Positions 863-64,000 of a DNA stretch of 64,000 bases are shown one piece after another. The notes below the pieces were generated by a model, which saw only the letters and a program-made list of their open reading frames with translations, had not been told where the DNA came from and did not search any database. The DNA comes from Escherichia phage ph0011: sequence record OP557969.1; one strand, written 5' to 3'. The position numbers and the translations under genes are program-made. Each line of letters opens with the position of its first letter. The stretch's first letter is position 1.

Positions 863-1759
863 TTACTTACCAGAGATAACAATCTTCCCACTGAATGCAA
901 CATCAGAAGTAAAGATCACGTCACCAGTATTGCTAATTTGTGTATCAGTTATTACCAATTCAAATGGTGAGGATGCAACACTACCAGGTGTTTTATTTGC
1001 ATAAATCGAAACATACAAATTGTCTGGTGATTGTTTGTGTTCAGATGCTGAAATCGTGATGATGAACACATCGTTATTAGAAATCCAATCTGCTTGGTTT
1101 ACTAATTTACTATAAGGTACTGTCATTGTTGTTGCTCCTATAATGTTTACTTTAACATTTGCATAATCTGTAATTTTACCAATTACATCTATTGTGATAT
1201 CACCAGTGCCGCTTACTACTACAGAGGTTTGAAATACGGAATCCAATGTTATACTACCATGAGGATCACCCTGTAGTTGTACCATGATATCAGGACCACG
1301 CCCATGTACAGATGCTGGAAGGGTGTATGTGTAATGGTCGGTAGTATCTGAAACTAATGTAAATGAAGATACTGGTATAGTTTCAGTTGTTACATATGGA
1401 CTATCAGTTTCATGTGAACTACCTTTGAATGATTTCCAAATACCAAGATCTTTAATATAAATTTGAAGAACATTAGTTTCATCAACTAAAAAATACAAAT
1501 CACCATCTAACCCAATAGTTTCATCCGGTGCACTGGTTCCACGCAAAATACCAGAACTCCCACCACTATGTGCGTTTAGATATCCTAACGTAACCAGGTG
1601 TGTGTCAGCGGTCGGTTCACCTGCTGAAATTGGAAGAAGTTTTGTTCCTGAGTAGTTTTGTATTTGCACAACACTACCATTTGTGGTAATCTGTGCACCA
1701 TTCTTCCCAAGAATGAAGGACTTCTTCATGGTTCCTTCTAAATTAGAAAAAACTGCCAT
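863..1759 (-). CDS. Tail fiber / receptor-binding protein (298 aa) with conserved N-terminal anchor domain
   Basis: ATG at 1757-1759, RBS AAGGAGA; first ~110 aa (MAVFSNLEGTMKKSFILGKNGA...) paralogous to N-terminus of adjacent 713-aa ORF; C-terminus divergent. Confidence 0.6.
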   Translation of the reverse strand: MAVFSNLEGTMKKSFILGKNGAQITTNGSVVQIQNYSGTKLLPISAGEPTADTHLVTLGYLNAHSGGSSGILRGTSAPDETIGLDGDLYFLVDETNVLQIYIKDLGIWKSFKGSSHETDSPYVTTETIPVSSFTLVSDTTDHYTYTLPASVHGRGPDIMVQLQGDPHGSITLDSVFQTSVVVSGTGDITIDVIGKITDYANVKVNIIGATTMTVPYSKLVNQADWISNNDVFIITISASEHKQSPDNLYVSIYANKTPGSVASSPFELVITDTQISNTGDVIFTSDVAFSGKIVISGK

Positions 1760-1775
1760 TTTAATTTAATCTCCT

Positions 1776-3917
1776 TTATGGTAGGGTTATGTACGTTACT
1801 GGTTGGGCGGCTTTTAATGATGCACCAGCGGCAGTTGCTGTTATGATGGGATCTGCAATATCAATTCTATATACGTTATTAACAACATATACTGCACGAG
1901 TTATATACGTTTTCAAATCATCACCATTTTCTCCAGCACCAGATATGATGATCTCAGTTCCCGCCGCTTTTGCATATTGGTTATCACCCCATGACACACC
2001 CAATGCTTCTATGTACGTTTGTCCTACTACCGTTTGTCTAATTGTGTCATATTTTCCAAAAAATGAACCACCCACTGTTACAATATATTTTCCACCTGAT
2101 TTTTTATGTATAATCGTTCCTTCTGGGAAGTATCTTCCACCAGGGAAAGTATCATATGGAATATAATATTGTTCAACTACAGGTATTAGAACTGGGCCAC
2201 GATGACCAGTACCGTCAATAGCAGTTGTTACTTTAAAATTATTAGATGATTGGTCGATTCTATCTACGTACATTTTAGAAAAACTATATTTTGAAACATT
2301 ACAATCATCTTGAACAACACAGTTAGTCCAATTAGTATAAGTATATTTAGAGCGAGTATACATTCCCCCACCCTCACCTTCAGTGGAAAGGTGTTGTCCT
2401 ATTACATCTAATTCTTTTGTTCTGATATCACTAAACTTAGATGAAGATGGTAGACCACGCCAAAGAATTTTAGAACAAGTGATATTACTTAATTCTGTAC
2501 TATTCAGCCAATTATCAGAACCAGAAGTATAAACGAATACGGAAGACTCTGGTATATAGAGATTGGAAATTTTAAAGTTTCTAGGTGGTCCAGCAAATCG
2601 ACCAGCAGTTACCCCCCAGTTAATAGATACCATACGGTTTGTGATTGTAGGATCATTAAGTAAATGTCCGGTTAAACCATCAATTACAAACTCTTTTGAG
2701 CCATAAGTTATCACACCAGCAGTTGTTAATCCAGTACCAACTGAAATTAGAGATGATGGATACACTTCGTTATCAAGTATTTTAAAGTCCATTCCCAATT
2801 CAACATGGATACATTGTCTAACATTATAAATTCTATTGTTCTTAATAACAAAGTTTCTAACGTATTGGGTATCAGGTGCATCCAGACCATAAGGACCAGA
2901 ACCCGCAACACCAATACCGATACCCCAGTTTGAAAGTGGGATTGGTGCATCTGAACCATCAACGTTTTCAATGATATTACCTTCGATTACAAAACCATCA
3001 GGATAATGTGAGTTAATAACGTTTAATTCTATTGCATCACCATATATATCATGAATATGGTTGTAAGAATAACGCCCCACTTTCATTTTCTCACCAGTTC
3101 CTTGCTGAAGAACGCCATATTTACATTTGGTCATTTCATTAAAGCAAAAATCTATTGTTCCTGGTTGGGTCATACCTTGCATCAAAAACGCGGCAGTACT
3201 GGTAATGTTTACAAATTTATTAAAATAAAATTTACCATCCCCACCAAAGAATTTCAAATAACATCCAGTAAGTGTGGTGAATTGAATTTGTGAATTAATA
3301 ACGGATATCATAGTACCACCATTACCAGTAATAGTGCCACCAAACCAAGTTACATCTTCCAAATATACTGCTTTTTTGATACGATAATTACCACCTGCTT
3401 GAATTTGTATTTTATTTTCTTTGGCATAAGTTGCACACAAATTTACAGCTTCAGTGTCATCGGTTTCCCCATCTCCTTTCGCACCAAATTCTTCTGGTGT
3501 TATATAGAACTGTGCTTGTTGAACTGTGCCACCAGTAATAAGGCCAATGAAATCACCACCATTTTTACTTGATAGTACTTTTTTATTAATGTATAGTGAT
3601 TTAATCCATGTGCCATTTGTTTTTACGAAAATATCAACAATACCATCTTCATCAATTTGAAAATAAGTGTTATTGTTTTTTCCAATATCACCAGACGGTG
3701 GTTGAACGCCAAATAAGGCATTTGGATTATCTTCAAGGTATCTAACATTAACTGCTGAATCTTGGTCTGATGGTGTTCCTATCTTTAGTGGTAGAAACTT
3801 TTCACCGAGATAATCTTTTATCGATACGGAATCATTGACGAAATTTATCGAAGCACCATTTTTACCCAATATCATTTTTGGTTTCATGGTTCCTTCAAAA
3901 TTAGAAAATACTGCCAT
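1776..3917 (-). CDS. Tail fiber / tailspike-like protein (713 aa), possible beta-helix depolymerase-type C-terminal part
   Basis: ATG 3915-3917 with RBS AAGGGGGTG; N-terminus MAVFSNFEGTMKPKMILGKNGA shares domain with 863-1759; long G/N/T-rich body. Confidence 0.55.
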   Translation of the reverse strand: MAVFSNFEGTMKPKMILGKNGASINFVNDSVSIKDYLGEKFLPLKIGTPSDQDSAVNVRYLEDNPNALFGVQPPSGDIGKNNNTYFQIDEDGIVDIFVKTNGTWIKSLYINKKVLSSKNGGDFIGLITGGTVQQAQFYITPEEFGAKGDGETDDTEAVNLCATYAKENKIQIQAGGNYRIKKAVYLEDVTWFGGTITGNGGTMISVINSQIQFTTLTGCYLKFFGGDGKFYFNKFVNITSTAAFLMQGMTQPGTIDFCFNEMTKCKYGVLQQGTGEKMKVGRYSYNHIHDIYGDAIELNVINSHYPDGFVIEGNIIENVDGSDAPIPLSNWGIGIGVAGSGPYGLDAPDTQYVRNFVIKNNRIYNVRQCIHVELGMDFKILDNEVYPSSLISVGTGLTTAGVITYGSKEFVIDGLTGHLLNDPTITNRMVSINWGVTAGRFAGPPRNFKISNLYIPESSVFVYTSGSDNWLNSTELSNITCSKILWRGLPSSSKFSDIRTKELDVIGQHLSTEGEGGGMYTRSKYTYTNWTNCVVQDDCNVSKYSFSKMYVDRIDQSSNNFKVTTAIDGTGHRGPVLIPVVEQYYIPYDTFPGGRYFPEGTIIHKKSGGKYIVTVGGSFFGKYDTIRQTVVGQTYIEALGVSWGDNQYAKAAGTEIIISGAGENGDDLKTYITRAVYVVNNVYRIDIADPIITATAAGASLKAAQPVTYITLP

Positions 3918-3929
3918 TGTGACACCCCC

Positions 3930-5057
3930 TTAAATATTATCTTGAATAGGTTGGACCGGAGCTTGCCACGAAAGAGTACAAATAATTTCCATTTTACCAT
4001 AAGGACTGTTATTAACTGAATCATTGAATACACATGAAATAATTTCATCTACATCTGAAACTTCATGATTTGTTTCATTGACGATAAAACGCATCTGGTT
4101 ATTAATATCAAAGTAGGTTGTTGGTGCAATTACGGTTCCACCAATATTCTCGTTTGCTTCACCACCAAATCGAACAAACATATCAGTTACTGGTTGTGAA
4201 TAAGGTTGTAAAACATTTACATCTATATTAGAAACTACATATCCAGAAGGACAAGTCCCAATAACTAATAGAGCATTAGTCCATGATCTATCAATAACGT
4301 TTCTAATTGTTACAGTATCTTTGCCTGGTGCACCCGGTTCACCTTGCTTACCTTGAATACCTTGTGGACCTTCTTTACCACGGAATAAAATACCACTACT
4401 CCATTCTTTTGATGGTGGGGTGGTAGTTGTTACTTCATCCACATAATAAAGCTTACCATCAGTGTTGTTATAGAAACAATAATCAATTGGGAGGTTTTCA
4501 ATACTTGGAAATTGATCACCACTATCGTCAATATGAAAACGACCACGTGGACCTTGCTCACCACGGAAAGGAATACCATCACTCCATGTAGCTGTTACTT
4601 TTTGATAAAAATATAGTTTACCATCTTGTGTATTGTAAAATGTATAGTTATCAAAAAGACCAGAACTTGGAAAAGTAGTTCCTGCACTATCGATATGAAA
4701 AGGCTTACCAGCTTCACCAGTATCACCTTTACCAAATTCAACACTAGTCCAAGTACTGGTTTCTTCTTGTGCATCATTTGATTTAAAATACAGAGTACTT
4801 GTGTTATTTGCCAAACTAAGATAGCACCAGCCAAGCGGTTCACCAACTTTAAATTTATCAGATGGAACTTCAAAACCAATCTCATTAGGATAAAAGTTTT
4901 TACCGTTCTGACCATTTTGTCCCACAACAAGACCGAGATCTTGAATTGTATTATCTGTATATGTTACAATTAAATGACCAGCATTATTAATAACTAGACT
5001 TTTGATGCCTGAGTTATTACATGAACCACTGGACCCATTGTTAAATGTAATTGTCAT
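3930..5057 (-). CDS. Tail fiber protein with collagen-like Gly-X-Y segments and ~50-aa tandem repeats (375 aa)
   Basis: ATG 5055-5057, RBS AAAGGGAAA; GEQGPRG and GKEGPQGIQGKQGEPGAPGKD triplet runs; three repeats of the pattern DGKLYF...W..G.PFRG.QGP.G.FHIDD.G..FPS. Confidence 0.6.
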   Translation of the reverse strand: MTITFNNGSSGSCNNSGIKSLVINNAGHLIVTYTDNTIQDLGLVVGQNGQNGKNFYPNEIGFEVPSDKFKVGEPLGWCYLSLANNTSTLYFKSNDAQEETSTWTSVEFGKGDTGEAGKPFHIDSAGTTFPSSGLFDNYTFYNTQDGKLYFYQKVTATWSDGIPFRGEQGPRGRFHIDDSGDQFPSIENLPIDYCFYNNTDGKLYYVDEVTTTTPPSKEWSSGILFRGKEGPQGIQGKQGEPGAPGKDTVTIRNVIDRSWTNALLVIGTCPSGYVVSNIDVNVLQPYSQPVTDMFVRFGGEANENIGGTVIAPTTYFDINNQMRFIVNETNHEVSDVDEIISCVFNDSVNNSPYGKMEIICTLSWQAPVQPIQDNI

Positions 5058-38442: not shown

Positions 38443-38534
38443 AAATCCCCACCAAACTAATTTTTATAAAAATATTTATGAGTTACATTAGAGAACAATA
38501 ATTATGTGTTTTTTGATAAATAAATTTAAATTAT

Positions 38535-42675: not shown

Positions 42676-44415
42676 ATGAGTTGGAAACGACATATGACAA
42701 TGGGAAGGTCTAAATTATCGACCATCCCAAATCAGTCCAGTAATAGCAATAAATCAACGGGAACTAAAACAAATTTCGCTTCCTATCTACCAGTTGTATA
42801 TAATGGATTGGCAAATCGCACTGAACGTTATAGTCAGTACGAGCAAATGGACCAAGACCCTGAAATTAGAACTGCATTAAATATCATTGCTGACTTCTGT
42901 ACACAAAGTACTGAAGACTATGGTTTGCCATATAAAATTAAATACAAAGATGATATTGGTGATACAGAAGTAACTACAATTGAAGACCGTTTGGATGCTT
43001 GGACTGAACAAAATGATTTTAAAACACGAATGTATGAAATTGTACGTGGTCTTCTTAAATATGGCGACCAGTTTTTTATTCGTGACCCAGAAACATTTGA
43101 TTGGTATTGGGTGAGTCCAAAAAACGTTGAACAAGTGTTTGTTAACGAAGCTACTGGAAAAACACCAGTAATTTATTACATACGAGATGTGTCATTGAAC
43201 CTGAAAGATAAGGTTTTTAGTAACCTACAAGTAGGATTTGATAAAACAGCTTATCCTGGTGCGATCCCTACAACAATGGGTGGGGGTGGTTCAGTAGCTG
43301 CGGGTGGTGCGTCTGGATTTACCAGCCAAGGAAATACTGCTGACCCATTCAGTACTAATGGACAATTGGACGTTATTCCTGTTGGTGCAGAACACGTAAT
43401 TCATCTAACACTAAATACAGGACAAGATGGGGTATGGCCTTTTGGAACAAGTATACTTGAGGACGTATTTAAAGTCTATAAGCAAAAAGAACTTCTGGAA
43501 GATAGTATTATAATTTATCGTGTACAACGTGCACCGGAACGTCGTGTGTTTAAAATTGATGTTGGTGATATGCAAGCACACCAAGCAATGGCTTATGTGG
43601 AAAGATTTAAAAATGAAATCCACCAGCGTAGAATACCTTCGAACAAAGGTGGAAGCACTTCATTGATGGATGCTGCATATAATCCATTAAGCATTTTAGA
43701 AGATTACTTTTTTCCACAAACTTCCGAAGGTCGTGGTTCTGATGTCCAAACACTACCTGGTGGTGATAACTTGGGACAAATTGATGACTTACGTTATTTT
43801 AATAATAAATTGATTCGTGGTCTTCAAATACCAGCTTCATATCTACCACAAGGTCCAGATGATGGCGGTGTTTCGCTATTTGGTGATGGTGCTACACAAG
43901 CTATGGCAAGTGAATTGCGATTCAATAATCAATGTATGCGTTATCAGCGTTTGGTTGCAAAACACTTTGATGCTGAGTTTAAAAGATTTATGGTTAAAAA
44001 TGGTTATAATATTAGTACTTCATCTTTTGAGGTTATAATGAATCCACCTATTAACTTGGCTTCTTATCGTAAAGCAGAGTTGGATGCTAAATTGATTAAC
44101 ACCTATCTTCCTCTTAATGACTTGCCTTATATGGCTAAACAAACAATTCTTGAAAAAATGGGATTTTCTAAATCTGATATTGTCAAGAATGAACAATTGT
44201 GGTTACAAGAAAATCCACAAGATGGTTCCCAACCTACTGGTGATGAAGAAGAATCCGCAGGTTTGCAGTCTGTTGGTATTGACGCACCAAATGACCCTGG
44301 TATGGATCTTGGTATTGATGGCGATGGTAATTTGGAAAGTGCTGATGCAGAATATCAAGAACAACAAAGTGGAAGTGACGGTTTTGACCCGAATAATTTA
44401 GGCAATTCTTTTTAA
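42676..44415 (+). CDS. gp20: Portal protein, gp20-like (579 aa)
   Basis: Size, acidic C-terminus and position upstream of prohead core, gp21, gp22 and gp23 homologs (T4 order 20-67-68-21-22-23); RBS AAGGA. No motif verified. Confidence 0.6.
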   Translation: MSWKRHMTMGRSKLSTIPNQSSNSNKSTGTKTNFASYLPVVYNGLANRTERYSQYEQMDQDPEIRTALNIIADFCTQSTEDYGLPYKIKYKDDIGDTEVTTIEDRLDAWTEQNDFKTRMYEIVRGLLKYGDQFFIRDPETFDWYWVSPKNVEQVFVNEATGKTPVIYYIRDVSLNLKDKVFSNLQVGFDKTAYPGAIPTTMGGGGSVAAGGASGFTSQGNTADPFSTNGQLDVIPVGAEHVIHLTLNTGQDGVWPFGTSILEDVFKVYKQKELLEDSIIIYRVQRAPERRVFKIDVGDMQAHQAMAYVERFKNEIHQRRIPSNKGGSTSLMDAAYNPLSILEDYFFPQTSEGRGSDVQTLPGGDNLGQIDDLRYFNNKLIRGLQIPASYLPQGPDDGGVSLFGDGATQAMASELRFNNQCMRYQRLVAKHFDAEFKRFMVKNGYNISTSSFEVIMNPPINLASYRKAELDAKLINTYLPLNDLPYMAKQTILEKMGFSKSDIVKNEQLWLQENPQDGSQPTGDEEESAGLQSVGIDAPNDPGMDLGIDGDGNLESADAEYQEQQSGSDGFDPNNLGNSF

Positions 44416-44716: not shown

Positions 44717-44817
44717 GTTAAAAATCGCACTTTTTGAAGCTTTTAAAAAAGGCGATTTTATTCAGTACTAAATAATATCATACTTTATACGAATATAATA
44801 TATCTATGGAGGATATA

Positions 44818-45654
44818 ATGGCGAATTTAAAACTACTACAAGAAGCAATTGCGGCGTTTGCAAATGGCGAGCAAGATATTGCTGATAAAAAAATGCGTAA
44901 GTATTTTGTTGAACAAGCACAAGAAATTAACAAAAAGCTAGAAGAAAGCATGGAAGACGAAGAAAGCATTGAAGATGAAGACGTCGAAGATGAAGAAAAG
45001 CTTGATGAAGATTTTGACGTACAACCAGATGCAGGTCTTAATGCAGAAATCCAATACACCCTTGGTGAAGAAGATGAAAGTGCAGAAGACGAAGTTGAGA
45101 TTTCTGCTGATGCAGATGCCGATGGTGAAGATGATGTTGATGTTGATGTAAAAGCAGATGCTGAAGTTCCTTCTGAAGATCAATGGGAATCAATTCAAGA
45201 TGCTTTCCGTGGTCTACAGCAAATGTTTGATGAAATTGGTGATGGTGAAGTTGACCTAGACTCCGATGAAGAAGTCGAAGATAGTGAAGAAGAAGTTGGT
45301 GTTGATGGTGATGATGAATTCGCTGATATTGAATTTGGTGATGAAAAAATCGGTGAATCATTCAAACTAGAAAAAGTTGCACCAGTTGATAAGAAAGAAA
45401 AAGCAGGAACTCATACTAAATCACCAGTTGCACCAGAAGCTAAATCACCAGTAGATGGTGTAGAACCAGTTAAATTCGCTAAGAAAACTGATCAAGCACC
45501 ACTAGTTGATCTTGATGATAAATCTGTTCTACCAAAAGATAATCTAGATCTTGGTAAAAACGCTCGTGGTGAAATGAAAGATGTCAAAGAACCAAAAACT
45601 ACTGCATCTAAGTCCAAATCACCACTAAGCAAAGCACAACCTAAACTAAAATAA
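44818..45654 (+). CDS. Highly acidic Asp/Glu-rich protein, prohead core / internal head protein candidate
   Basis: ATG 44818 (MANLKLLQEA) has RBS GGAGGA; the ORF-track ATG 44806 lacks one; long D/E runs; sits between portal and gp21 protease where T4 has gene 68. Confidence 0.5.
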   Translation: MANLKLLQEAIAAFANGEQDIADKKMRKYFVEQAQEINKKLEESMEDEESIEDEDVEDEEKLDEDFDVQPDAGLNAEIQYTLGEEDESAEDEVEISADADADGEDDVDVDVKADAEVPSEDQWESIQDAFRGLQQMFDEIGDGEVDLDSDEEVEDSEEEVGVDGDDEFADIEFGDEKIGESFKLEKVAPVDKKEKAGTHTKSPVAPEAKSPVDGVEPVKFAKKTDQAPLVDLDDKSVLPKDNLDLGKNARGEMKDVKEPKTTASKSKSPLSKAQPKLK

Positions 45655-45674: not shown

Positions 45675-46298
45675 ATGAGTAGTATGATTCGTGAATGGTC
45701 TTCATTCAATGATTCTAAAGTTGTTTTGGAACATCGTGATAATGGATTTGGTGGGCGTGATTGCTATCTTCGTGGCATTGCTATTCAAGCTGACCAACGA
45801 AATTTGAACGAGAGAATTTACCCTTTATCTGAAATTACAAGGGCAGTAAATAACATGAACCAGCGTTTAGCTAAAGGTGAAAGCATTCTTGTTGAATGTG
45901 ACCATCCAGAAACATTAACTATTAATCTGGACCGAGTAGCAGCAATGATTACTAAGGTTTGGATGGAAGGTGCTAATGGTATGGCAGAAATCAAATTACT
46001 TGATACTGCACATGGTCAAAATATCCGTAAAATGCTAGAGGCTGGTGTGAAACTTGGTGTAAGTTCTCGCGGTTCCGGTAACGTTGATTATAATGGAATA
46101 GTTTCTGATTTTGAAATTATCACTATTGATATTGTTGCTCAACCTAGTGCTCCAGAAGCATACCCAACAGCGGTATTTGAATCTCTGATGAGTAAGTACG
46201 GATCACCTTGTAAAAGTTCTAAAAAAATCACTGAATCTAAAAAGGTAAATAACTTAGATTCCGAAATATACGATTTTTTCAAGAAATTAAAAGGTTAA
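45675..46298 (+). CDS. gp21: Prohead core protease, T4 gp21 family (207 aa)
   Basis: YLRGIAIQADQRNLNERIYP, HPE...KLGVSSRGSG and QPSAPEAY blocks align with T4 gp21 (YIEGIFMQAEVVNRNKRLYP, GWIPGVSSRGLG, GPSAPDAW); RBS AAAGGAGA. Confidence 0.9.
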   Translation: MSSMIREWSSFNDSKVVLEHRDNGFGGRDCYLRGIAIQADQRNLNERIYPLSEITRAVNNMNQRLAKGESILVECDHPETLTINLDRVAAMITKVWMEGANGMAEIKLLDTAHGQNIRKMLEAGVKLGVSSRGSGNVDYNGIVSDFEIITIDIVAQPSAPEAYPTAVFESLMSKYGSPCKSSKKITESKKVNNLDSEIYDFFKKLKG

Positions 46299-46364: not shown

Positions 46365-47480
46365 ATGTCTAAATTAGAAAAGCTTCTAAAAGAATCATCT
46401 CTTTCTGATGAGGCAAAACAGCTAATTCAGGAAGCATGGAATGAAGAAAAGAATACACTAGCCGCAGAGATGCGTGAAGAAATGAAAGGTCGTTACCAGC
46501 AGGATTTGGCTGAACTAACTGAAGGTTTGAACACTATGGTTACTCAAGTCATTGCTGAAGAAATGGGTGCTGTATATGAAGAGAAAAAACGTCTTGTTGA
46601 AGATCGTGTAACTCTACGTAAAACACTAAGCAATTTCTCTGCGTTTTCGAACTCTGTATTGGCAGAAGAAGTTAAACAAATGCGTAAAGAACGTAAGCAT
46701 CTTCATGAATGTATGGGTAAATTTGTTAATTTTTCTAACGGTATCCTAGCAGAAGAGCTAAAAGAATTCCACAATGAAAAACGTCAACTAGTTGAAACAC
46801 GTGTAAAACTACTTGCTGAAGGTTCACGTCAAATTGCTGAAGCTCGTAATAACTTCATCAAACGTACATCTGAAAGTGCTGCTAAATATATTGCAGAGAC
46901 AACTCAGAAGAATCTATATGCGTTGAAACAAGATCTAGTGGAAGCGAAACAAAATATGTTTGGTCGTAAAATCTTTGAAGCATTTGCTCAAGAATTTAAT
47001 GTCAAACAATTCAATGAAAATTCATTGCTACGTTCACTAACTGAAACAATTAAATCTAAAGAAGATGAAATTGATCAAGTTAAGCAAGAACTACATGAAA
47101 CTGTTAATGCGGTCAAAGCTGCTAAAACTAAACTACGTATTATGGAAGATGCACAAGCCCGTAATGCGATTATGTCTGAACTAGTAAAACCACTAACAGC
47201 ACAGCAAAAACAAATTATGGAATCCCTTCTAGCAACTTCACCTACTGAAAAGCTTAAAGAAGATTTCAATAAGTACCATAAGTCAGTACTTAACGGTACT
47301 AAAGTAAATGAATCTGCTACCACTCGTCAAGCAGTTCAGTCTTCCGCTAAGAAAACTCTTGCAGAAGGTAAAGTGATCACTGGCAACCGTCAGGCTATTG
47401 TTGAAAGCGAAGAAATGACCGCTGACGATATGGCATTCCTAAAAGAACTTGATGTTCTTTCTGGTATCAATAAAAAATAA
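46365..47480 (+). CDS. gp22: Prohead scaffold protein, gp22-like (371 aa)
   Basis: Coiled-coil E/K/A/L-rich sequence; between gp21 and gp23 homologs; RBS AAGGAGAG. Confidence 0.7.
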   Translation: MSKLEKLLKESSLSDEAKQLIQEAWNEEKNTLAAEMREEMKGRYQQDLAELTEGLNTMVTQVIAEEMGAVYEEKKRLVEDRVTLRKTLSNFSAFSNSVLAEEVKQMRKERKHLHECMGKFVNFSNGILAEELKEFHNEKRQLVETRVKLLAEGSRQIAEARNNFIKRTSESAAKYIAETTQKNLYALKQDLVEAKQNMFGRKIFEAFAQEFNVKQFNENSLLRSLTETIKSKEDEIDQVKQELHETVNAVKAAKTKLRIMEDAQARNAIMSELVKPLTAQQKQIMESLLATSPTEKLKEDFNKYHKSVLNGTKVNESATTRQAVQSSAKKTLAEGKVITGNRQAIVESEEMTADDMAFLKELDVLSGINKK

Positions 47481-47571: not shown

Positions 47572-48747
47572 ATGTCACAACTACTAAATGAATCCAAATG
47601 GGTAGCAGTAAAAGAGAAACTAGTTGAAGGTCTACAGGGTACTCGTAAGTCTGTAATGGAAACTGTTCTTGATAACCATCGTAAAGTTATGCTAACTGAA
47701 TCTGCAACTTCTGGTGCAACTACTGCTGGTAACATCGCTACTCTAAACAAAGTGATTCTACCAATTATGCGTCGTGTAATGCCAACTGTTATTGCGAACG
47801 AAATTATCGGTGTTCAACCAATGACTGGTCCAGTTGGTCAGATTCACACCCTACGTGTGCAATATGCTGATAATGCACCTGGTGTTATTGCTGGTGAAGA
47901 AATGCTTTCTCCATACAAAATTGCAAAATCCTACTCTGGTGAACTAAATTCTGATAATAGCAACCCACAAGCTGCTCCTACTAGTCAACTAGAAGGTACT
48001 ATGGGTCGTCGCGTAAATATCCGTATCCTACGTGAAACTGTTGAAGCGAAATCACGTCGTCTATCTGCACGTTGGACTGTTGAATCTGCACAAGATGCAC
48101 AATCTCAACATGGTGTTGATGTTGAAGCTGAACTAATGGCAGCAATTGCACAAGAAGTTACTGTAGAAATCGACCAAGAACTACTAAGCCGTCTACGTGC
48201 ACTACCAGGTGCTGCTGCTGTAACTTATGACCAATCTAAAGTTACCGGTGTTGCAACTTTCGTAGGTGATGAACACGCTGCTCTAGCTACCCTAATCAAC
48301 CGTCAAGCTAACGAAGTTGCTCGTCGTACCAAGCGTGGTGCAGCAAACTGGGCCGTTGTTTCCCCAACTGCTCTAACCATTCTACAGTCTGCAACTACTT
48401 CTAGCTTTGCACGTACCACTGAAGGTACTTTTGAAGCACCAACTAACGTTAAGTTTGTAGGTACTCTAAACAGCACCATGCGTATCTTTGTTGATACCTA
48501 TGCAAGTGATTCTGAAGATATCCTAATTGGTTATAAAGGTAATGCTGAAACTGATGCTGGTGTATTCTATTGCCCATACATCCCACTAATGGCATCCGGT
48601 ACTGTTATGGACCCTAACACTGGTGAATTGGTTACAACTTTCCTAACTCGTTATGGTTACGTACAATTGACCGACAGCACTTCCTCTCTTGGTAACGCTG
48701 CTGACTACTATAGCAAAATCGCTATCAAAAACGTTACTTTCATGTAA
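47572..48747 (+). CDS. gp23: Major capsid protein, T4 gp23 family (391 aa)
   Basis: Blocks IIGVQPMTGPVGQIHTLRVQYA, VEAKSRRLSARWTVESAQDAQSQHGVDVEAEL and GYKGNAETDAGVFYCPYIPL align with T4 gp23; RBS AAGGAGA. Confidence 0.9.
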   Translation: MSQLLNESKWVAVKEKLVEGLQGTRKSVMETVLDNHRKVMLTESATSGATTAGNIATLNKVILPIMRRVMPTVIANEIIGVQPMTGPVGQIHTLRVQYADNAPGVIAGEEMLSPYKIAKSYSGELNSDNSNPQAAPTSQLEGTMGRRVNIRILRETVEAKSRRLSARWTVESAQDAQSQHGVDVEAELMAAIAQEVTVEIDQELLSRLRALPGAAAVTYDQSKVTGVATFVGDEHAALATLINRQANEVARRTKRGAANWAVVSPTALTILQSATTSSFARTTEGTFEAPTNVKFVGTLNSTMRIFVDTYASDSEDILIGYKGNAETDAGVFYCPYIPLMASGTVMDPNTGELVTTFLTRYGYVQLTDSTSSLGNAADYYSKIAIKNVTFM

Positions 48748-48889: not shown

Positions 48890-50488
48890 ATGCTTGGTGA
48901 AATCAAACAGTTTTTGAAGACGAAAAAGTTAAGAGGTGTAAAATCTGCACTTCAAGCAAAACCATTATATGTTGATTACTTAAAAGAAATTTATGGTGAT
49001 ATCGAACTGAATGTTATCATTTACATGGTATTGAATGATATTAAAGAAATTCCAAAAGCAAAATGTGGTAACGATGTAAAGTTTGTTAATTTAATTGAGG
49101 GATTCAGTGACAGATGTAATCTACCGTTTCAGGGAAAAAATAAATGTAAAGTTTGTTCTGTAATGATTTCTGAAAAAAGAAAAAGTACATACAAGAATAA
49201 AACTGGGTATGATAATCCCGGACAGAATCCAGACGTTCGTGACAAGATGTCAAGAACTAATATTAATCGTTACGGAACTACTGTTCCCCAGCAGACCGAT
49301 GTTGTCAAAAAACGTTCAATTGAGACAAATCTTCTTAAGTACGGAGTTGAACATCCCTCAATGTTGGAAGAAAACAAAGAGAAACGCCAAAAAACTGTTT
49401 TTGAAAAGTATGGTGTAGATAATGTACTTAAAACTACACATAAACGCCTTGAAGAACGTTATATGAATTTCAAGAAAAAATATGAATATTCTGGAAAATA
49501 TACATTACTTAGTTCAATTGAAGAGTATGATTCTTCTGTTAATGGTGTTAAAAGTATTCTTTTATGGAAATGTAATACTTGCAACAATACTTTCAATAAA
49601 GTTGCACCGTGTTTAAGATGTCCTAAATGTGAACCATACTCTTCCAGTACTGAAGAAGTTGAATTATATGAATATATTTCATCAATCTATGACGGTGTAA
49701 TTATCCAGAATAGTAGGAATATTATCACAGGTAATGAGATTGATATTTTCATTCCAGAACTGAAACTTGGTATTGAGTTCAATGGTGAGTACTGGCACAG
49801 AGACGAAGTGCGTGGTAATAATTATCATCAGAGCAAATATATTCGTATGAAGGAAAATGGCAACAAACTTATTACTATATATAGTAATGAATGGCGTAAT
49901 AAAACTGACATCGTTAAGCGTAGATTAAAAAGCATTTTAAATACTGATAATAGAGTGTACGCTCGTAAGTGTACTATCGGTTTAGTTCAGAATGATGTAT
50001 GTGATGAGTTTTTGAATACATATCATATACAGGGTAAGTGTAGTTCTTCGATTCGCGTAGGTCTGTATTTGGAAACAGAACTTGTTGCAGTAATGACATT
50101 CGGTAAACCAAGATTTAACAAAGAATATGAATATGAACTACTCCGTTATTGTTCCAAAGATACAGTGGTTGGTGGTGCTTCAAAACTGTTAAAATATTTC
50201 GAAATTACACATGTTCCAAAATCTTTGATATCTTATGCTGATATGAATTGGAGTTCTGGTAATCTATATGAAGCAATTGGATTTCAATTTGTTGAAATGA
50301 CGAAACCTGGATATTTCTATTATGATAAAAAAACAGAAACCACATATTCCAGATACCAATGTCAAAAGCAAAAACTAATATCAAAGTTTGGATTTCCTAA
50401 CACAATGACAGAGAATGAAATGACACGATCACTTGGTTATTACAAAATATATGATTGTGGTAATTTAGTATATAAAAAAGAATACTAA
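48890..50488 (+). CDS. Multi-domain freestanding nuclease, homing-endonuclease-like (532 aa)
   Basis: N-terminal CxxC pair, three ~21-aa repeats ending in [RK]YG, zinc ribbon CNTCN...CLRCPKC, Vsr/DUF559-like PD-(D/E)xK core IDIFIPELKLGIEFNGEYWH, C-terminal domain with GGASKLL motif; inserted between capsid gene and fiber module. Confidence 0.6.
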   Translation: MLGEIKQFLKTKKLRGVKSALQAKPLYVDYLKEIYGDIELNVIIYMVLNDIKEIPKAKCGNDVKFVNLIEGFSDRCNLPFQGKNKCKVCSVMISEKRKSTYKNKTGYDNPGQNPDVRDKMSRTNINRYGTTVPQQTDVVKKRSIETNLLKYGVEHPSMLEENKEKRQKTVFEKYGVDNVLKTTHKRLEERYMNFKKKYEYSGKYTLLSSIEEYDSSVNGVKSILLWKCNTCNNTFNKVAPCLRCPKCEPYSSSTEEVELYEYISSIYDGVIIQNSRNIITGNEIDIFIPELKLGIEFNGEYWHRDEVRGNNYHQSKYIRMKENGNKLITIYSNEWRNKTDIVKRRLKSILNTDNRVYARKCTIGLVQNDVCDEFLNTYHIQGKCSSSIRVGLYLETELVAVMTFGKPRFNKEYEYELLRYCSKDTVVGGASKLLKYFEITHVPKSLISYADMNWSSGNLYEAIGFQFVEMTKPGYFYYDKKTETTYSRYQCQKQKLISKFGFPNTMTENEMTRSLGYYKIYDCGNLVYKKEY

Positions 50489-57425: not shown

Positions 57426-58157
57426 ATGGATCTACGCAACGTACTACGTGACCTAGTTAACACCACCAGCAGCATCGATTTTTCTTGTATCGCAGTGAGT
57501 AGTGAAGACCGTGGTGAAGGACAACGTGTATATATGGAAGCGTATACAGATGACCGAACTCTTGTTATGCGTGCATATACAAAAGAAGATGTTCCTGAAG
57601 TTCAGGGTCGTTTTGGTCTAGGAAACCTAGGTCTTCTTCAGGGTCTAATGTCCCTTAAAACGTACAGTACTGAAGGAACTACCATTACATCTAATGTTAA
57701 AGATGGTTCAGTTAAAAGTTTAGGATTTAAATCAGAAGATGCAAGTACTACATTTATGGTACAAGCAGAAAAACTTATTCCAGTTCAACCACGTTTCCAT
57801 GAACAACCATATGACGTACAGGTTATTCCTAGTGCTGCTAAAGTTCAAGAACTAAAAAGTTTTTCTGGTGTATTCAAATCATTTAGTTCTCTCGTAACAC
57901 CATACACTGAAGGAGACACTCTATACTTTCATGTTGGTGAGAAAAACAAAAGCAATCACGTTGGGTCATTAGCTTTTTCTAAAACTGAAGGTGAATTGGG
58001 TCTTGGATTTGGATACAATATTGATCGTGTACTTCAAGCACTGTCCCGTGTATCTAATGCTGAATCTGTATCACTCGGAATTACCAAAACTGGTATGCTA
58101 AATGTAACGCTTGATACTGGTATTGCAGTATACAAATTTTACGTAACAGGTTGCTAA
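57426..58157 (+). CDS. Sliding clamp-like protein (T4 gp45-like, 243 aa)
   Basis: GRFGLGNLGLLQGLMSLK and S.DASTTF...L.PVQP segments align with T4 gp45 (VAIYDLNGFLGILSLV, STIFWPAADPSTVVAP) from memory; near the polymerase; RBS GGAGA. Confidence 0.5.
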   Translation: MDLRNVLRDLVNTTSSIDFSCIAVSSEDRGEGQRVYMEAYTDDRTLVMRAYTKEDVPEVQGRFGLGNLGLLQGLMSLKTYSTEGTTITSNVKDGSVKSLGFKSEDASTTFMVQAEKLIPVQPRFHEQPYDVQVIPSAAKVQELKSFSGVFKSFSSLVTPYTEGDTLYFHVGEKNKSNHVGSLAFSKTEGELGLGFGYNIDRVLQALSRVSNAESVSLGITKTGMLNVTLDTGIAVYKFYVTGC

Positions 58158-58432: not shown

Positions 58433-58732
58433 ATGAAAATTAAAATGATTAATGATTATGTACTTGTTCGCCAAATTGAAGCACAGAATAAAAGTTCTGG
58501 TGGTATTATTCTTGGTAATGTTGAACCACCTTGCATTGGTATGGTAATTTCAGTTGGGCCTGGTAAAATCTTACCTAATGGACAATTAGCAGAGCACAAT
58601 ATTAAAGAAGGTGATATGGTTGTATTTGGACGCTCTTCATTGAACACCCCACTCACTGAAGATCTTGGTGGTGGTGAAGATACATATTATGTAATGAAAA
58701 TTGAAGAGATTTTTGGTAAGAAAAATGGCTAA
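58433..58732 (+). CDS. GroES-like co-chaperonin (cpn10; functional analog of T4 gp31, 99 aa)
   Basis: MKIKMINDYVLVRQIEAQNKSSGGIILG...GMVISVGPGKILPNG...GDMVVFG follows the GroES pattern; ORF-track upstream start rejected, ATG 58433 used. Confidence 0.7.
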   Translation: MKIKMINDYVLVRQIEAQNKSSGGIILGNVEPPCIGMVISVGPGKILPNGQLAEHNIKEGDMVVFGRSSLNTPLTEDLGGGEDTYYVMKIEEIFGKKNG

Positions 58733-59450
58733 AAAGAAATTCATACCATTTTGGCTTGTCCCTGCACATTGGGGACTTTCTGGAAAAGCAAAAGAGATTG
58801 CCAAAGCATACTACTACAATGATGATTATGAAGCTGATATGAAAGTTGCAGAATTGACATATTTAACTCCATATGAAGTAGAAGTAGCACATTTAGATAT
58901 TAAAAAGAAATATAATGTAATTGGAGAACTTGAATATCTAATCGCAGTACTTGATGTGGACCTTAAATATTCTAAAATTACACGTGAACAGTATGACGTT
59001 AAAGTTCTTGATGCAAAATTAAGTACTGGAACTATTACTGAAAAAGAATATGACATGGAAATTATCGAGTTAATGCCAGACGGTGATGAAAAAAGGCTGA
59101 AGGCAATTGAATATGCATATCGATATGATGAAATCACACAAAGTGAATATTCTAAGGAAATATACACACTTCGTAAAGAGCCGTGGATTGATTTAGACGT
59201 GGTTCTTGACCCTGATACGAATGAAGTTGAGTTTGTGTTTGATTATAATGAGTATTTCTGGAAAAAGTTGAAGGCTGAAGGCCATCCAGGTAATGACGAA
59301 GAAGAGATTATTGATAATTTTGTTAGAGACTTAGGTCGTAAACTTGCCACGGATGATTTCAGTGATGATTATGACACAAAGTTGGTGAGTGCGAACGAAG
59401 GATTAGACAAGCTACCTGGTTTGCCTGAAGGTTTTCGTTCATATAGATGA
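58725..59450 (+). CDS. Hypothetical acidic protein with internal KEYD/EY repeats (241 aa)
   Basis: ORF-track start 58701 is TTG; ATG 58725 (MAKKKFIPFW) overlaps the GroES-like stop; followed by a strong terminator. Confidence 0.45.
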   Translation: MAKKKFIPFWLVPAHWGLSGKAKEIAKAYYYNDDYEADMKVAELTYLTPYEVEVAHLDIKKKYNVIGELEYLIAVLDVDLKYSKITREQYDVKVLDAKLSTGTITEKEYDMEIIELMPDGDEKRLKAIEYAYRYDEITQSEYSKEIYTLRKEPWIDLDVVLDPDTNEVEFVFDYNEYFWKKLKAEGHPGNDEEEIIDNFVRDLGRKLATDDFSDDYDTKLVSANEGLDKLPGLPEGFRSYR

Positions 59451-59455
59451 AATAT

Positions 59456-59487
59456 AAAAAGGAGAGCATATGCTCTCCTTTTCTTTT
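59456..59487. terminator. Bidirectional intrinsic terminator (near-perfect palindrome)
   Basis: GGAGAGCATATGCTCTCC flanked by an A-run and TTTTCTTTT; between convergent genes. Confidence 0.85.
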
Positions 59488-59493
59488 GATATA

Positions 59494-60183
59494 TTAAACC
59501 AATGCTGGGAGGTATTTGAATAGTTTAATACCGAAATCACCTGCTGCATCAGCGGCCTGTGAACGAAGATACACTTCAGTGACACCATCTTTTGCCAATA
59601 GCGGAACACCAGTTAGGTCATCGATTAGTAGGCGACCTTCTTCATATTCAGTACTTGGAACACCTTGTGGTGATTTGAGATCTTTATTAAAGACACTAGC
59701 ACGTTCAACAAGGAATGTGATAACAGAAGCATCATCAATGCTAACGCTACCAGCACTCATAACACCATCAGGTGCGTTGGAGAAACCAGTAACCGGAAAC
59801 GCTTCAGCACCACTTCCTGCAATGTTGGATGTGGCAATAACAACTGCACGCTGTTGCACAACGTCTACGATGCGTTTGACGTTGGTTTGTGCTGCATAGG
59901 ATGCATTGTAATCTGATTCTAGTGATTCTAGAACGAAAGCAGAACCATCAACACGCTTGATACCTTTATCATTTAGGTATGCTAGAATTTCTTCTGGGAT
60001 ATCAGTGTTTAGAAAACGTTGTAAACCTACATAAGAGGAAACTGCTCCTGTTACAAGAACGTTCACGTCACCAAGTTTACTAATAGCAATAGATGCTAGG
60101 GCGTTAGTACCACAAAAGTAACCTAGAATACGCTCAAATGAATACCCATTGATACGTTCAAAAGAAGTATTAGTATTTGACAT
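59494..60183 (-). CDS. Hypothetical protein, paralog A of a tandem pair (229 aa), probable late/structural gene
   Basis: Shares VVQQRAVVIATS...VFNKDLK blocks with the adjacent gene; RBS GAGAGG. Confidence 0.5.
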   Translation of the reverse strand: MSNTNTSFERINGYSFERILGYFCGTNALASIAISKLGDVNVLVTGAVSSYVGLQRFLNTDIPEEILAYLNDKGIKRVDGSAFVLESLESDYNASYAAQTNVKRIVDVVQQRAVVIATSNIAGSGAEAFPVTGFSNAPDGVMSAGSVSIDDASVITFLVERASVFNKDLKSPQGVPSTEYEEGRLLIDDLTGVPLLAKDGVTEVYLRSQAADAAGDFGIKLFKYLPALV

Positions 60184-60198
60184 AATATTACCTCTCTA

Positions 60199-60798
60199 TT
60201 ATAGTTGAACTGGAAGAGCAGCACGTACTTTAATAGCTACAGCAGTAGATGCACCTGCATCACCAACACCATCAGTTCCTTGACTTACGAAAGTTTTAGT
60301 ACGAAAAACTTTAGCTTGTGCAATAGATTTAGCTAGGTCAACAGTTGGATCAACTGGAGCAGGACATGCAGAACCTGGACGAACTTCTTGTTTATTAAAT
60401 ACGTCTTGACGTTCACAGATGAAAGTCAATGCAACAGAGTTAGCACCACCTTTAACATCAGTACCGCTAGTACCAAATGCAACTACGTTTGGGTTAGCAT
60501 TTTTAAAATCTTCAGGAATAACAACTTCTGCATCAAGAGCAAGTAGTGAAGTCGTTACAAGAACAGCACGTTGCTGTAGTAGTTGAGTAACCATGAATAG
60601 GTTATATTGTGCATTGCTTAGTGCAGTTTGATATGCATCAGCTTGAGCATCAGAACCATCGGACACAACTTTAGTAGTACCGATTTCAACATCGGCTGGT
60701 AGATCGATTACGATGGTTACAAAACCGTTGTTACCACCCCACCATTCGCGTGCAACACCAGACATACCATAGTTACGGTTAAAAGAATTAAGACTCAT
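60199..60798 (-). CDS. Hypothetical protein, paralog B of a tandem pair (199 aa), probable late/structural gene
   Basis: LLQQRAVLVTTS...VFNKQEV blocks; strong RBS AAGGAGA; ATAAATA-type motif 46-58 nt upstream on the minus strand. Confidence 0.5.
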   Translation of the reverse strand: MSLNSFNRNYGMSGVAREWWGGNNGFVTIVIDLPADVEIGTTKVVSDGSDAQADAYQTALSNAQYNLFMVTQLLQQRAVLVTTSLLALDAEVVIPEDFKNANPNVVAFGTSGTDVKGGANSVALTFICERQDVFNKQEVRPGSACPAPVDPTVDLAKSIAQAKVFRTKTFVSQGTDGVGDAGASTAVAIKVRAALPVQL

Positions 60799-60843
60799 GA
60801 AAATCTCCTTGTCAAATTTTGTGCAGGAACATCCTGCTTAAAG

Positions 60844-60920
60844 TTATTTATCAAAAAATATCATCAGCATTTAAATTTACTGAAATAATTAATGAATTTC
60901 TATGATATTATTTATCAAAA
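60844..60920. repeat. Two 13-bp direct repeats TTATTTATCAAAA (60844-60856 and 60908-60920) in divergent promoter region
   Basis: Read directly; the reverse complement contains GATAAATAA (late-promoter-like, minus strand); the second copy abuts the -35 of the RNase H promoter. Confidence 0.5.

Positions 60921-60959: not shown

Positions 60960-64000
<3,041 letters not shown>

Follow-up and report, generated by a model that had tools for sequence, protein, structure and literature searches.

Within the 64,000-nt stretch of DNA from Escherichia phage ph0011 that we analyzed (OP557969.1; hereafter, the window), two genes adjoin each other on the minus strand. Gene A (60199-60798) encodes a protein of 199 amino acids (20.9 kDa, pI 4.8), and gene B (59494-60183) encodes a protein of 229 amino acids (24.4 kDa, pI 4.6); the spacer between them is 15 nt. 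Both open reading frames lie exactly where an earlier, sequence-only reading of this DNA had placed them. That reading also held that the two proteins share conserved blocks, and the similarity is significant: BLASTP of A against B gave 34% identity over 80 amino acids (E = 1e-8), and the aligned stretch contains LLQQRAVLVTTS / VVQQRAVVIATS and DVFNK / SVFNK. In an alignment of 73 sequences that includes both ortholog groups, the homology runs end to end at ~26% identity. Twelve columns of this alignment are invariant (R8, G11, G22, N24, A63, N66, Q76, R77, V79, S84, E129, and R130, in gene A numbering), and 4 of the 12 fall within the first 24 residues. Relative to A, B has a two-helix insertion of ~30 amino acids (residues ~45-80). 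Judged by these alignments, A and B are true paralogs. A profile built from the 73 sequences identified no third copy of the family among the open reading frames of the window.

The window comes from an Asteriusvirus-like jumbo coliphage and represents a distinct isolate. The 1.8-kb region that contains A and B is 95.5% identical at the nucleotide level to Escherichia phage UE-S1 and ~89% identical to PBECO4, 121Q, phAPEC6, and other Asteriusvirus coliphages (~350 kb); gene A is 99% identical to a UE-S1 protein. The orthologs of A are 121Q gp618, phAPEC6 gp210, PBECO4 gp504, RaK2 ORF107w, CBB_271, and fENko-Kae01 CDS_301, and the orthologs of B are 121Q gp617, phAPEC6 gp211, RaK2 ORF106w, CBB_270, and fENko-Kae01 CDS_300. 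At the amino acid level, A and B are 95% and 90% identical to 121Q gp618 and gp617, 67% and 65% identical to RaK2 ORF107w and ORF106w, and 52% and 57% identical to CBB_271 and CBB_270. The pairs in RaK2, 121Q, phAPEC6, and CBB have the same gene order, synteny, upstream motif, and terminator as A and B, with no substantive difference. The sequence-only reading could not place the two proteins in a known family, but both belong to phrog_9326 ("virion structural protein"), which includes RaK2 ORF106w and ORF107w. (A matches profile positions 1-195 of 195 with E = 3.5e-86, and B matches positions 2-195 of 195 with E = 2.3e-83.)

By tblastn, the pair is present in 73 phage records: one Vibrio phage and, otherwise, RaK2-like jumbo phages that infect enterobacteria or Xanthomonas; 11 Klebsiella records carry the family. 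A search of 1.84 billion representative proteins gave only 42 clusters that match the A/B profile. So few clusters in all provide no bridge to a characterized family, and the sequence searches indicate that the family is small and specific to the RaK2-like clade. Neither A nor B has a match in Pfam at E ≤ 1, so we could not reproduce the "hemagglutinin repeat" label of phAPEC6 gp211. Two further candidates were set aside. P0145, a 1,054-amino-acid lectin/Ig-domain protein that matched the profile, was considered as a display fusion and dropped (hhalign 26%, and its gene lies beside RHS genes). A 267-amino-acid gene upstream of the pair in a metagenome contig (L009) was rejected as a paralog.

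The pair lies between the gene for RNase H, on the side of A, and the genes for a 249-amino-acid structural protein and GroES, on the side of B. The order of A then B between these neighbors is also found in PBECO4, phAPEC6, 121Q, RaK2, CBB, and fENko-Kae01, and all of the 73 records with the family contain orthologs of A as well as of B, with conserved order and synteny, which bears out the earlier suggestion of an old tandem duplication. The same arrangement is kept in Vibrio phage 2.275.O and in a metagenomic contig (about 36-39% identity; 36-38% for the Vibrio phage), so the duplication is older than the radiation of the whole group. Vibrio phage 2.275.O (MG592671.1) has three tandem copies of the family at 1135-3206 (genes 488, 487, and 486); the third tandem paralog was identified with an hhalign probability of 97.7%, and the additional copy, which lies upstream, comes with a separate ATAAATA motif and hairpin.

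The divergent intergenic region upstream of A (218 nt) holds two copies of TGATAAATAA, an element of the T4-late type. The proximal copy (60844-60853, minus strand, with ATAAATA at 60845-60851) is 53 nt upstream of the start codon of A, and the distal copy (60908-60917, minus strand, with ATAAATA at 60909-60915) is 117 nt upstream. The sequence-only reading had described ATAAATA-type motifs here as late-promoter-like, and their conservation agrees with this. Alignments with PBECO4, RaK2, CBB, and 13 further relatives show no change in the proximal GATAAATAA(C), although the DNA on either side has diverged. GATAAATAA is unchanged in the window, PBECO4/121Q, RaK2, CBB, GAP32, BF, Yen9-04, and metagenomic relatives, and in the relatives the proximal motif is always 52-60 nt from the start codon. 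The distal ATAAATA is invariant in a four-way alignment and lies at −117 to −128, or ~65 nt upstream of the proximal motif, in every Rak2-like relative examined. Independently, the CBB paper reports that ATAAATA precedes structural genes in CBB and GAP32 and that CBB has a gp55-like sigma factor. The annotation of fENko-Kae01 also includes a sigma factor.

The late genes of T4, with gp55-dependent TATAAATA, likewise have an ATAAATA core ~50-60 nt upstream of a structural gene. Compared to the T4 late octamer, 7 of 8 positions match: the consensus here is (T)GATAAATAA, with G replacing the first T. In contrast to T4 late promoters, the element upstream of A is followed by a conserved hairpin. 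We found no enrichment of the exact TATAAATA in the window (6 occurrences versus 10 expected). From its sequence and its conservation, we infer that the ATAAATA element works as a late promoter. An intergenic TTTTTTGATAAATAAATTTAAA at 38507-38530 (plus strand) closely resembles the promoter element of A and has no hairpin after it; this site may be a further late promoter.

The hairpin is in the 5' UTR (GCAGG-ATGTT-CCTGC, 60823-60837, minus strand) and starts 7 nt past the proximal promoter element. RNAalifold predicted 6 base pairs from 13 relatives, and 5 of the 6 are supported by compensatory double changes: the stem is GCAGG/CCTGC, GTAAG/CTTAC, GCCAG/CTGGC, or CCAGG/CCTGG. All 5 core pairs are intact in the 13 sequences, and the loop varies in both length and sequence. 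Given the 7-nt distance from the element and the spacing of T4-late-type promoters, the mRNA probably begins with the hairpin or no more than 1-2 nt away from it; the predicted transcription start is at about 60838-60839 (minus strand). RNA structures at the 5' terminus protect transcripts, and this hairpin presumably stabilizes the mRNA.

As the sequence-only reading had noticed, both genes have good Shine-Dalgarno sequences. AAGGAG precedes A (60805-60810, minus strand) and is conserved in all of the relatives, and GAGAGG precedes B (60191-60196, minus strand) within the A-B spacer. (Both were read from the sequence.) Because the 15-nt spacer is too short to hold a promoter, A and B are probably cotranscribed. 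A bidirectional intrinsic terminator (59456-59483, both directions), with a 12-bp palindromic stem that is flanked by runs of A and T, separates B from the convergent gene for the 249-amino-acid virion protein (58701-59450, plus strand); the UE-S1 record also has a terminator annotated at this position. There is also a sub-threshold Rfam match to the MicX sRNA at 59445-59644 (plus strand), which overlaps the terminator and, in antisense, the 3' end of gene B. This match is probably due to chance (31.7 bits versus a gathering score of 75, E = 3.4e-4).

The 249-amino-acid protein and a nearby 243-amino-acid protein (57426-58157, plus strand) have orthologs in virion preparations, although their genes sit among genes for replication and for chaperones (DNA polymerase, zinc ribbon, and GroES). 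(These orthologs include phAPEC6 gp215c, with 26% coverage, and fENko-Kae01 CDS_295 and CDS_299; RaK2 ORF105 is annotated as structural.) The two proteins match phrog_12062 and phrog_13349 and have no match in Pfam.

Are A and B abundant in the virion, as the sequence-only reading supposed? Published proteomics of their orthologs supports this. In RaK2, ORF106w and ORF107w were detected in the virion and described as "two distantly related proteins," and they are among the only five proteins named in the description of the virion gel (SDS-PAGE), along with the MCP, the sheath, and gp528 (PMC3622015). Both run at their predicted mass (PMC3622015), which implies that they are not cleaved. In phAPEC6, MS coverage was 69.8% for gp210 and 69.9% for gp211, as compared to 74.9% for the MCP and 68.0% for the sheath. 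In CBB, coverage was 91.3% for CBB_270, 56.4% for CBB_271, and 68.1% for the MCP. In fENko-Kae01, 55 spectra were reported for CDS_300, 40 for CDS_301, 106 for the MCP (a protein roughly double their length), and 31 for the sheath; the corresponding intensities were 1.5e6 for B, 1.4e6 for A, 1.8e6 for the MCP, and 3.3e5 for the sheath, on a strongly compressed scale that does not give absolute copy numbers (the per-residue intensity of the MCP is ~5 times that of the portal, where ~135 is expected). Per residue, the spectral counts in fENko-Kae01, which are also non-linear, are 0.25 for B, 0.21 for A, 0.27 for the MCP, and 0.035 for the sheath. Finally, gp617 and gp618 are annotated as "structural protein" in the 121Q record. 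Thus, as shown by four published proteomes of relatives, the orthologs of A and B are in the same abundance class as the MCP. In codon usage, A and B rank 2nd and 5th among the 44 open reading frames of the window in similarity to the MCP gene, a point in favor of a head role. (As the reference, the MCP gene is first by construction, and the other top places are taken by head-module genes.)

It could be argued that A and B are abundant late proteins that merely copurify with virions, such as an assembly factor or a soluble oligomer, or that they are low-copy parts of the virion that are overdetected by MS. The only purification of the fENko-Kae01 sample was ultrafiltration at 300 kDa, it contained many non-structural proteins, and both coverage and spectral counts saturate rather than rising linearly with abundance. 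However, the orthologs are found in virion preparations of five phages (RaK2, phAPEC6, CBB, fENko-Kae01, and, via the annotation of its record, 121Q) from independent laboratories, and in RaK2 they were identified by SDS-PAGE of virion proteins. We consider this explanation to be improbable.

If A and B are major virion proteins, then they could belong to the tail or to the head. The authors of the RaK2 study suggested that one of ORF106w and ORF107w might be the tail tube, based on size, propensity for beta sheets, and abundance (PMC3622015), and the sequence-only reading also listed "tube-like" proteins among its options. Tail tube proteins of myoviruses (T4 gp19/Hcp-like) are indeed similar to A and B in that they are 20-25 kDa, are present in high copy in a repetitive structure, and occur as tandem paralogs, but they differ in sequence profile, predicted fold, gene location, and abundance. 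In particular, the relatives have three tube paralogs that adjoin the sheath gene. In phAPEC6, gp275c, gp274c, and gp273c are directly downstream of the sheath gene and match tail-tube PHROGs (phrog_4542 with E = 5e-86 and 8e-80, phrog_13438 with E = 8.5e-227, and phrog_45 weakly), and their counterparts in fENko-Kae01 are annotated as tail tube proteins. A search of the PDB by sequence with the phAPEC6 paralogs found nothing, so their identity as tubes rests on the PHROG matches, their place by the sheath gene, and the fENko-Kae01 annotation. In the cryo-EM study of phiKp24, too, the tube gene adjoins that of the sheath, but we take this only as an analogy, since the 11 Klebsiella records with the A/B family do not include phiKp24. 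(The phAPEC6 paralogs, of 228, 258, and 364 amino acids, are in tandem at 1644-4307 on the minus strand of L006, from MK817115.1, and all three were detected in virions of both phAPEC6 and fENko-Kae01.)

The A/B profile is unrelated to these tube proteins (hhalign probabilities of 0.2% and 0.3% against gp275c and gp273c). The A and B genes are not adjacent to the sheath gene either: in phAPEC6 the pair maps to 129.6 kb and the sheath gene to 211.7 kb. The tube paralogs are also detected far less than A and B, with coverage of 9-30% in phAPEC6 and 4, 4, and 12 spectra in fENko-Kae01 (supplementary table of that study), or 0.02-0.03 per residue. On the same non-linear scale, the per-residue counts of A and B in fENko-Kae01 are 6-7 times that of the sheath. 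We therefore reject the tail tube as the identity of the pair. More broadly, one of the two could be the tube, or both could be a repetitive component of the tail that coats the sheath or anchors hairs, and phages of this group do bear unusual tail hairs and tail decorations; taking these variants together with the suggestion of the RaK2 authors, we view a tail role as very improbable, even more so than copurification.

To consider how A and B might fit into a virion, we built AF2 models of the monomers with the 73-sequence alignment. Both models are confident (pLDDT of 86.2 and pTM of 0.81 for A; pLDDT of 82.1 and pTM of 0.77 for B), and they share an order of elements: a strand, a ~26-residue helix, three strands, short helices, and a C-terminal strand. 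The model of B has additional helices at 51-58 and 63-73. According to these models, the fold is a ferredoxin-like alpha/beta sandwich around the one long helix. The N-terminal arm (the first ~15-20 residues) of both proteins has pLDDT below 50 and yet contains the invariant R8, G11, G22, and N24, so that ~20 residues are predicted to be disordered in the monomer but are conserved. Segments that are conserved but have low pLDDT are typical of parts that become ordered only upon binding a partner.

Searches with these models did not identify a known fold. Foldseek gave no match in the PDB with E below 0.18, the matches in BFVD were only members of the family and unnamed proteins, and searches of the PDB by sequence found no match for A, for B, or for the family profile. 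No tail-tube, Hcp, HK97, or known decoration fold was among the structural matches. As far as the models can be compared, the fold is an orphan among solved structural proteins of phages.

The location of the genes is more consistent with the head. In the window, the pair lies between the head module (42.7-48.7 kb) and the terminase (63.2 kb). The head module comprises the portal (42676-44415), a gp21-like protease (45675-46298), a scaffold-like gene (46365-47480), and the MCP (47572-48747). Between the portal and the protease is a 282-amino-acid "virion structural protein" (44806-45654, plus strand; phrog_15696). In fENko-Kae01, gene order and size single out CDS_283 as its counterpart, and no protein of that dataset is more intense (1.2e7, 131 spectra). 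The 282-amino-acid protein is a plausible candidate for a core or inner-body protein. Immediately downstream of the MCP gene is a 532-amino-acid HNH/homing-endonuclease gene (48890-50488, plus strand; phrog_3339, E = 5e-136).

At the other side of the pair, the open reading frame for the large terminase (63193-64000, plus strand) reaches a stop codon after 100 amino acids, exactly at the Walker A motif, where PBECO4 has TARQMGKTT. From 63455, in another frame, there is an intein-like sequence (Hint and LAGLIDADG) that is inserted in the P-loop of TerL. UE-S1 TerL (885 amino acids; LAGLIDADG_3 with E = 5e-11 and Hom_end) has the same insertion in frame, and TerL of PBECO4 and phAPEC6 has no such insertion. 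As there is one extra base near 63454 relative to UE-S1, the frame appears to shift where extein and intein meet, which might reflect either a sequencing error or a pseudogene.

If A and B are head proteins, the next question is whether they are inside or outside of the shell. They could form the inner body (91 × 18 nm), or a core on which the 350-kb genome is spooled, and perhaps be ejected with the DNA. The inner body of phiKZ consists of families of tandem paralogs, which speaks for this possibility. Also, the abundance of A and B is of the head class rather than the tail class, the genes are near the head module, and the large inner body seen in phAPEC6 and 121Q has no proteins assigned to it. 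Several observations argue against an internal location. First, this phage encodes a gp21-like protease, and in heads of the T4 and phiKZ types the prohead protease normally cleaves the core proteins. In contrast, the RaK2 orthologs have their full predicted size on the gel, and one of the CBB orthologs was covered to 91%. Second, both A and B are acidic (pI of 4.6-4.8), which, together with the lack of processing, is not expected of DNA-bound core proteins. Third, the 282-amino-acid protein and CDS_239 are even more intense in fENko-Kae01 and are better-placed candidates for the core. Overall, we think that an internal role is unlikely.

The alternative is that A and B are on the outside. Cryo-EM of phAPEC6 at ~10 Å showed a second, elongated protein layer that is present at the copy number of the MCP, and from cryo-EM of 121Q, also at ~10 Å, at least two decoration proteins were inferred on the T=28 capsid. 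The phAPEC6 paper describes the two capsids as alike at this resolution. These studies also describe fibers at the hexamer centers, a vertex protein, and the inner body, none of which has proteins assigned to it. We favor the outer layer over the inner body because A and B are of the abundance class of the MCP, are not processed, are acidic, have a conserved disordered arm, and are encoded near the head genes; in short, decoration is more likely than an internal role. Still, the authors of the phAPEC6 study were unable to assign the second layer by MS and remarked that the layer could be an additional MCP domain, which counts against our interpretation. We rate the assignment of A and B to an outer layer on the T=28 head, at the copy number of the MCP, as a serious possibility that falls slightly short of an even chance.

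This role would resemble that of known decoration or cement proteins (lambda gpD, T4 Soc and Hoc, Dec of P22/L, and the minor capsid proteins of phiKZ), which are small, are unprocessed, and have the stoichiometry of the MCP. These proteins sit outside of the HK97-fold shell, bridge capsomers at local symmetry axes, and dock with a terminal arm, and A and B might do likewise. However, searches of the PDB found no match in fold or sequence between A or B and the known decoration proteins. If A and B are decoration proteins, then their fold is new in that role, and they work as a paralogous pair.

We propose the following model. A and B make up a late operon of two genes in a jumbo myovirus of the RaK2/121Q type. 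The ATAAATA promoter is the probable start of transcription, which would proceed through the 5' hairpin and the strong ribosome-binding sites and end at the bidirectional terminator. The products would be head proteins rather than tail proteins and most likely build the elongated second protein layer of the T=28 capsid seen in 121Q and phAPEC6. There, A and B may pair with each other or fill non-equivalent sites, and the conserved N-terminal arm may dock onto the MCP or onto a neighboring subunit. The more detailed picture, of a heterotypic pair of ferredoxin-like paralogs with a fold that is new among capsid cement and decoration proteins, docked by their arms and highly expressed by means of the late promoter and the 5' hairpin, is a little more tentative than the placement on the outside of the head.

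The existence of the pair, its paralogy, its association with virions, and its abundance were already published for the relatives, and to that extent our analysis is a rediscovery. What we add is the rejection of the tube hypothesis, the orphan fold, and the conserved cassette of promoter and hairpin. This cassette could be a usable expression signal for engineering therapeutic jumbo phages. With the tube label removed, with confident models of the monomers, and with a specific density to which to compare them, the assignment of A and B to the second layer could be tested with one good map of the capsid. The heads of RaK2/121Q-type phages (T=28, ~135 nm) are among the largest known for phages, and the A/B pair is the most obvious candidate, among proteins as abundant as the MCP, for bracing that shell.
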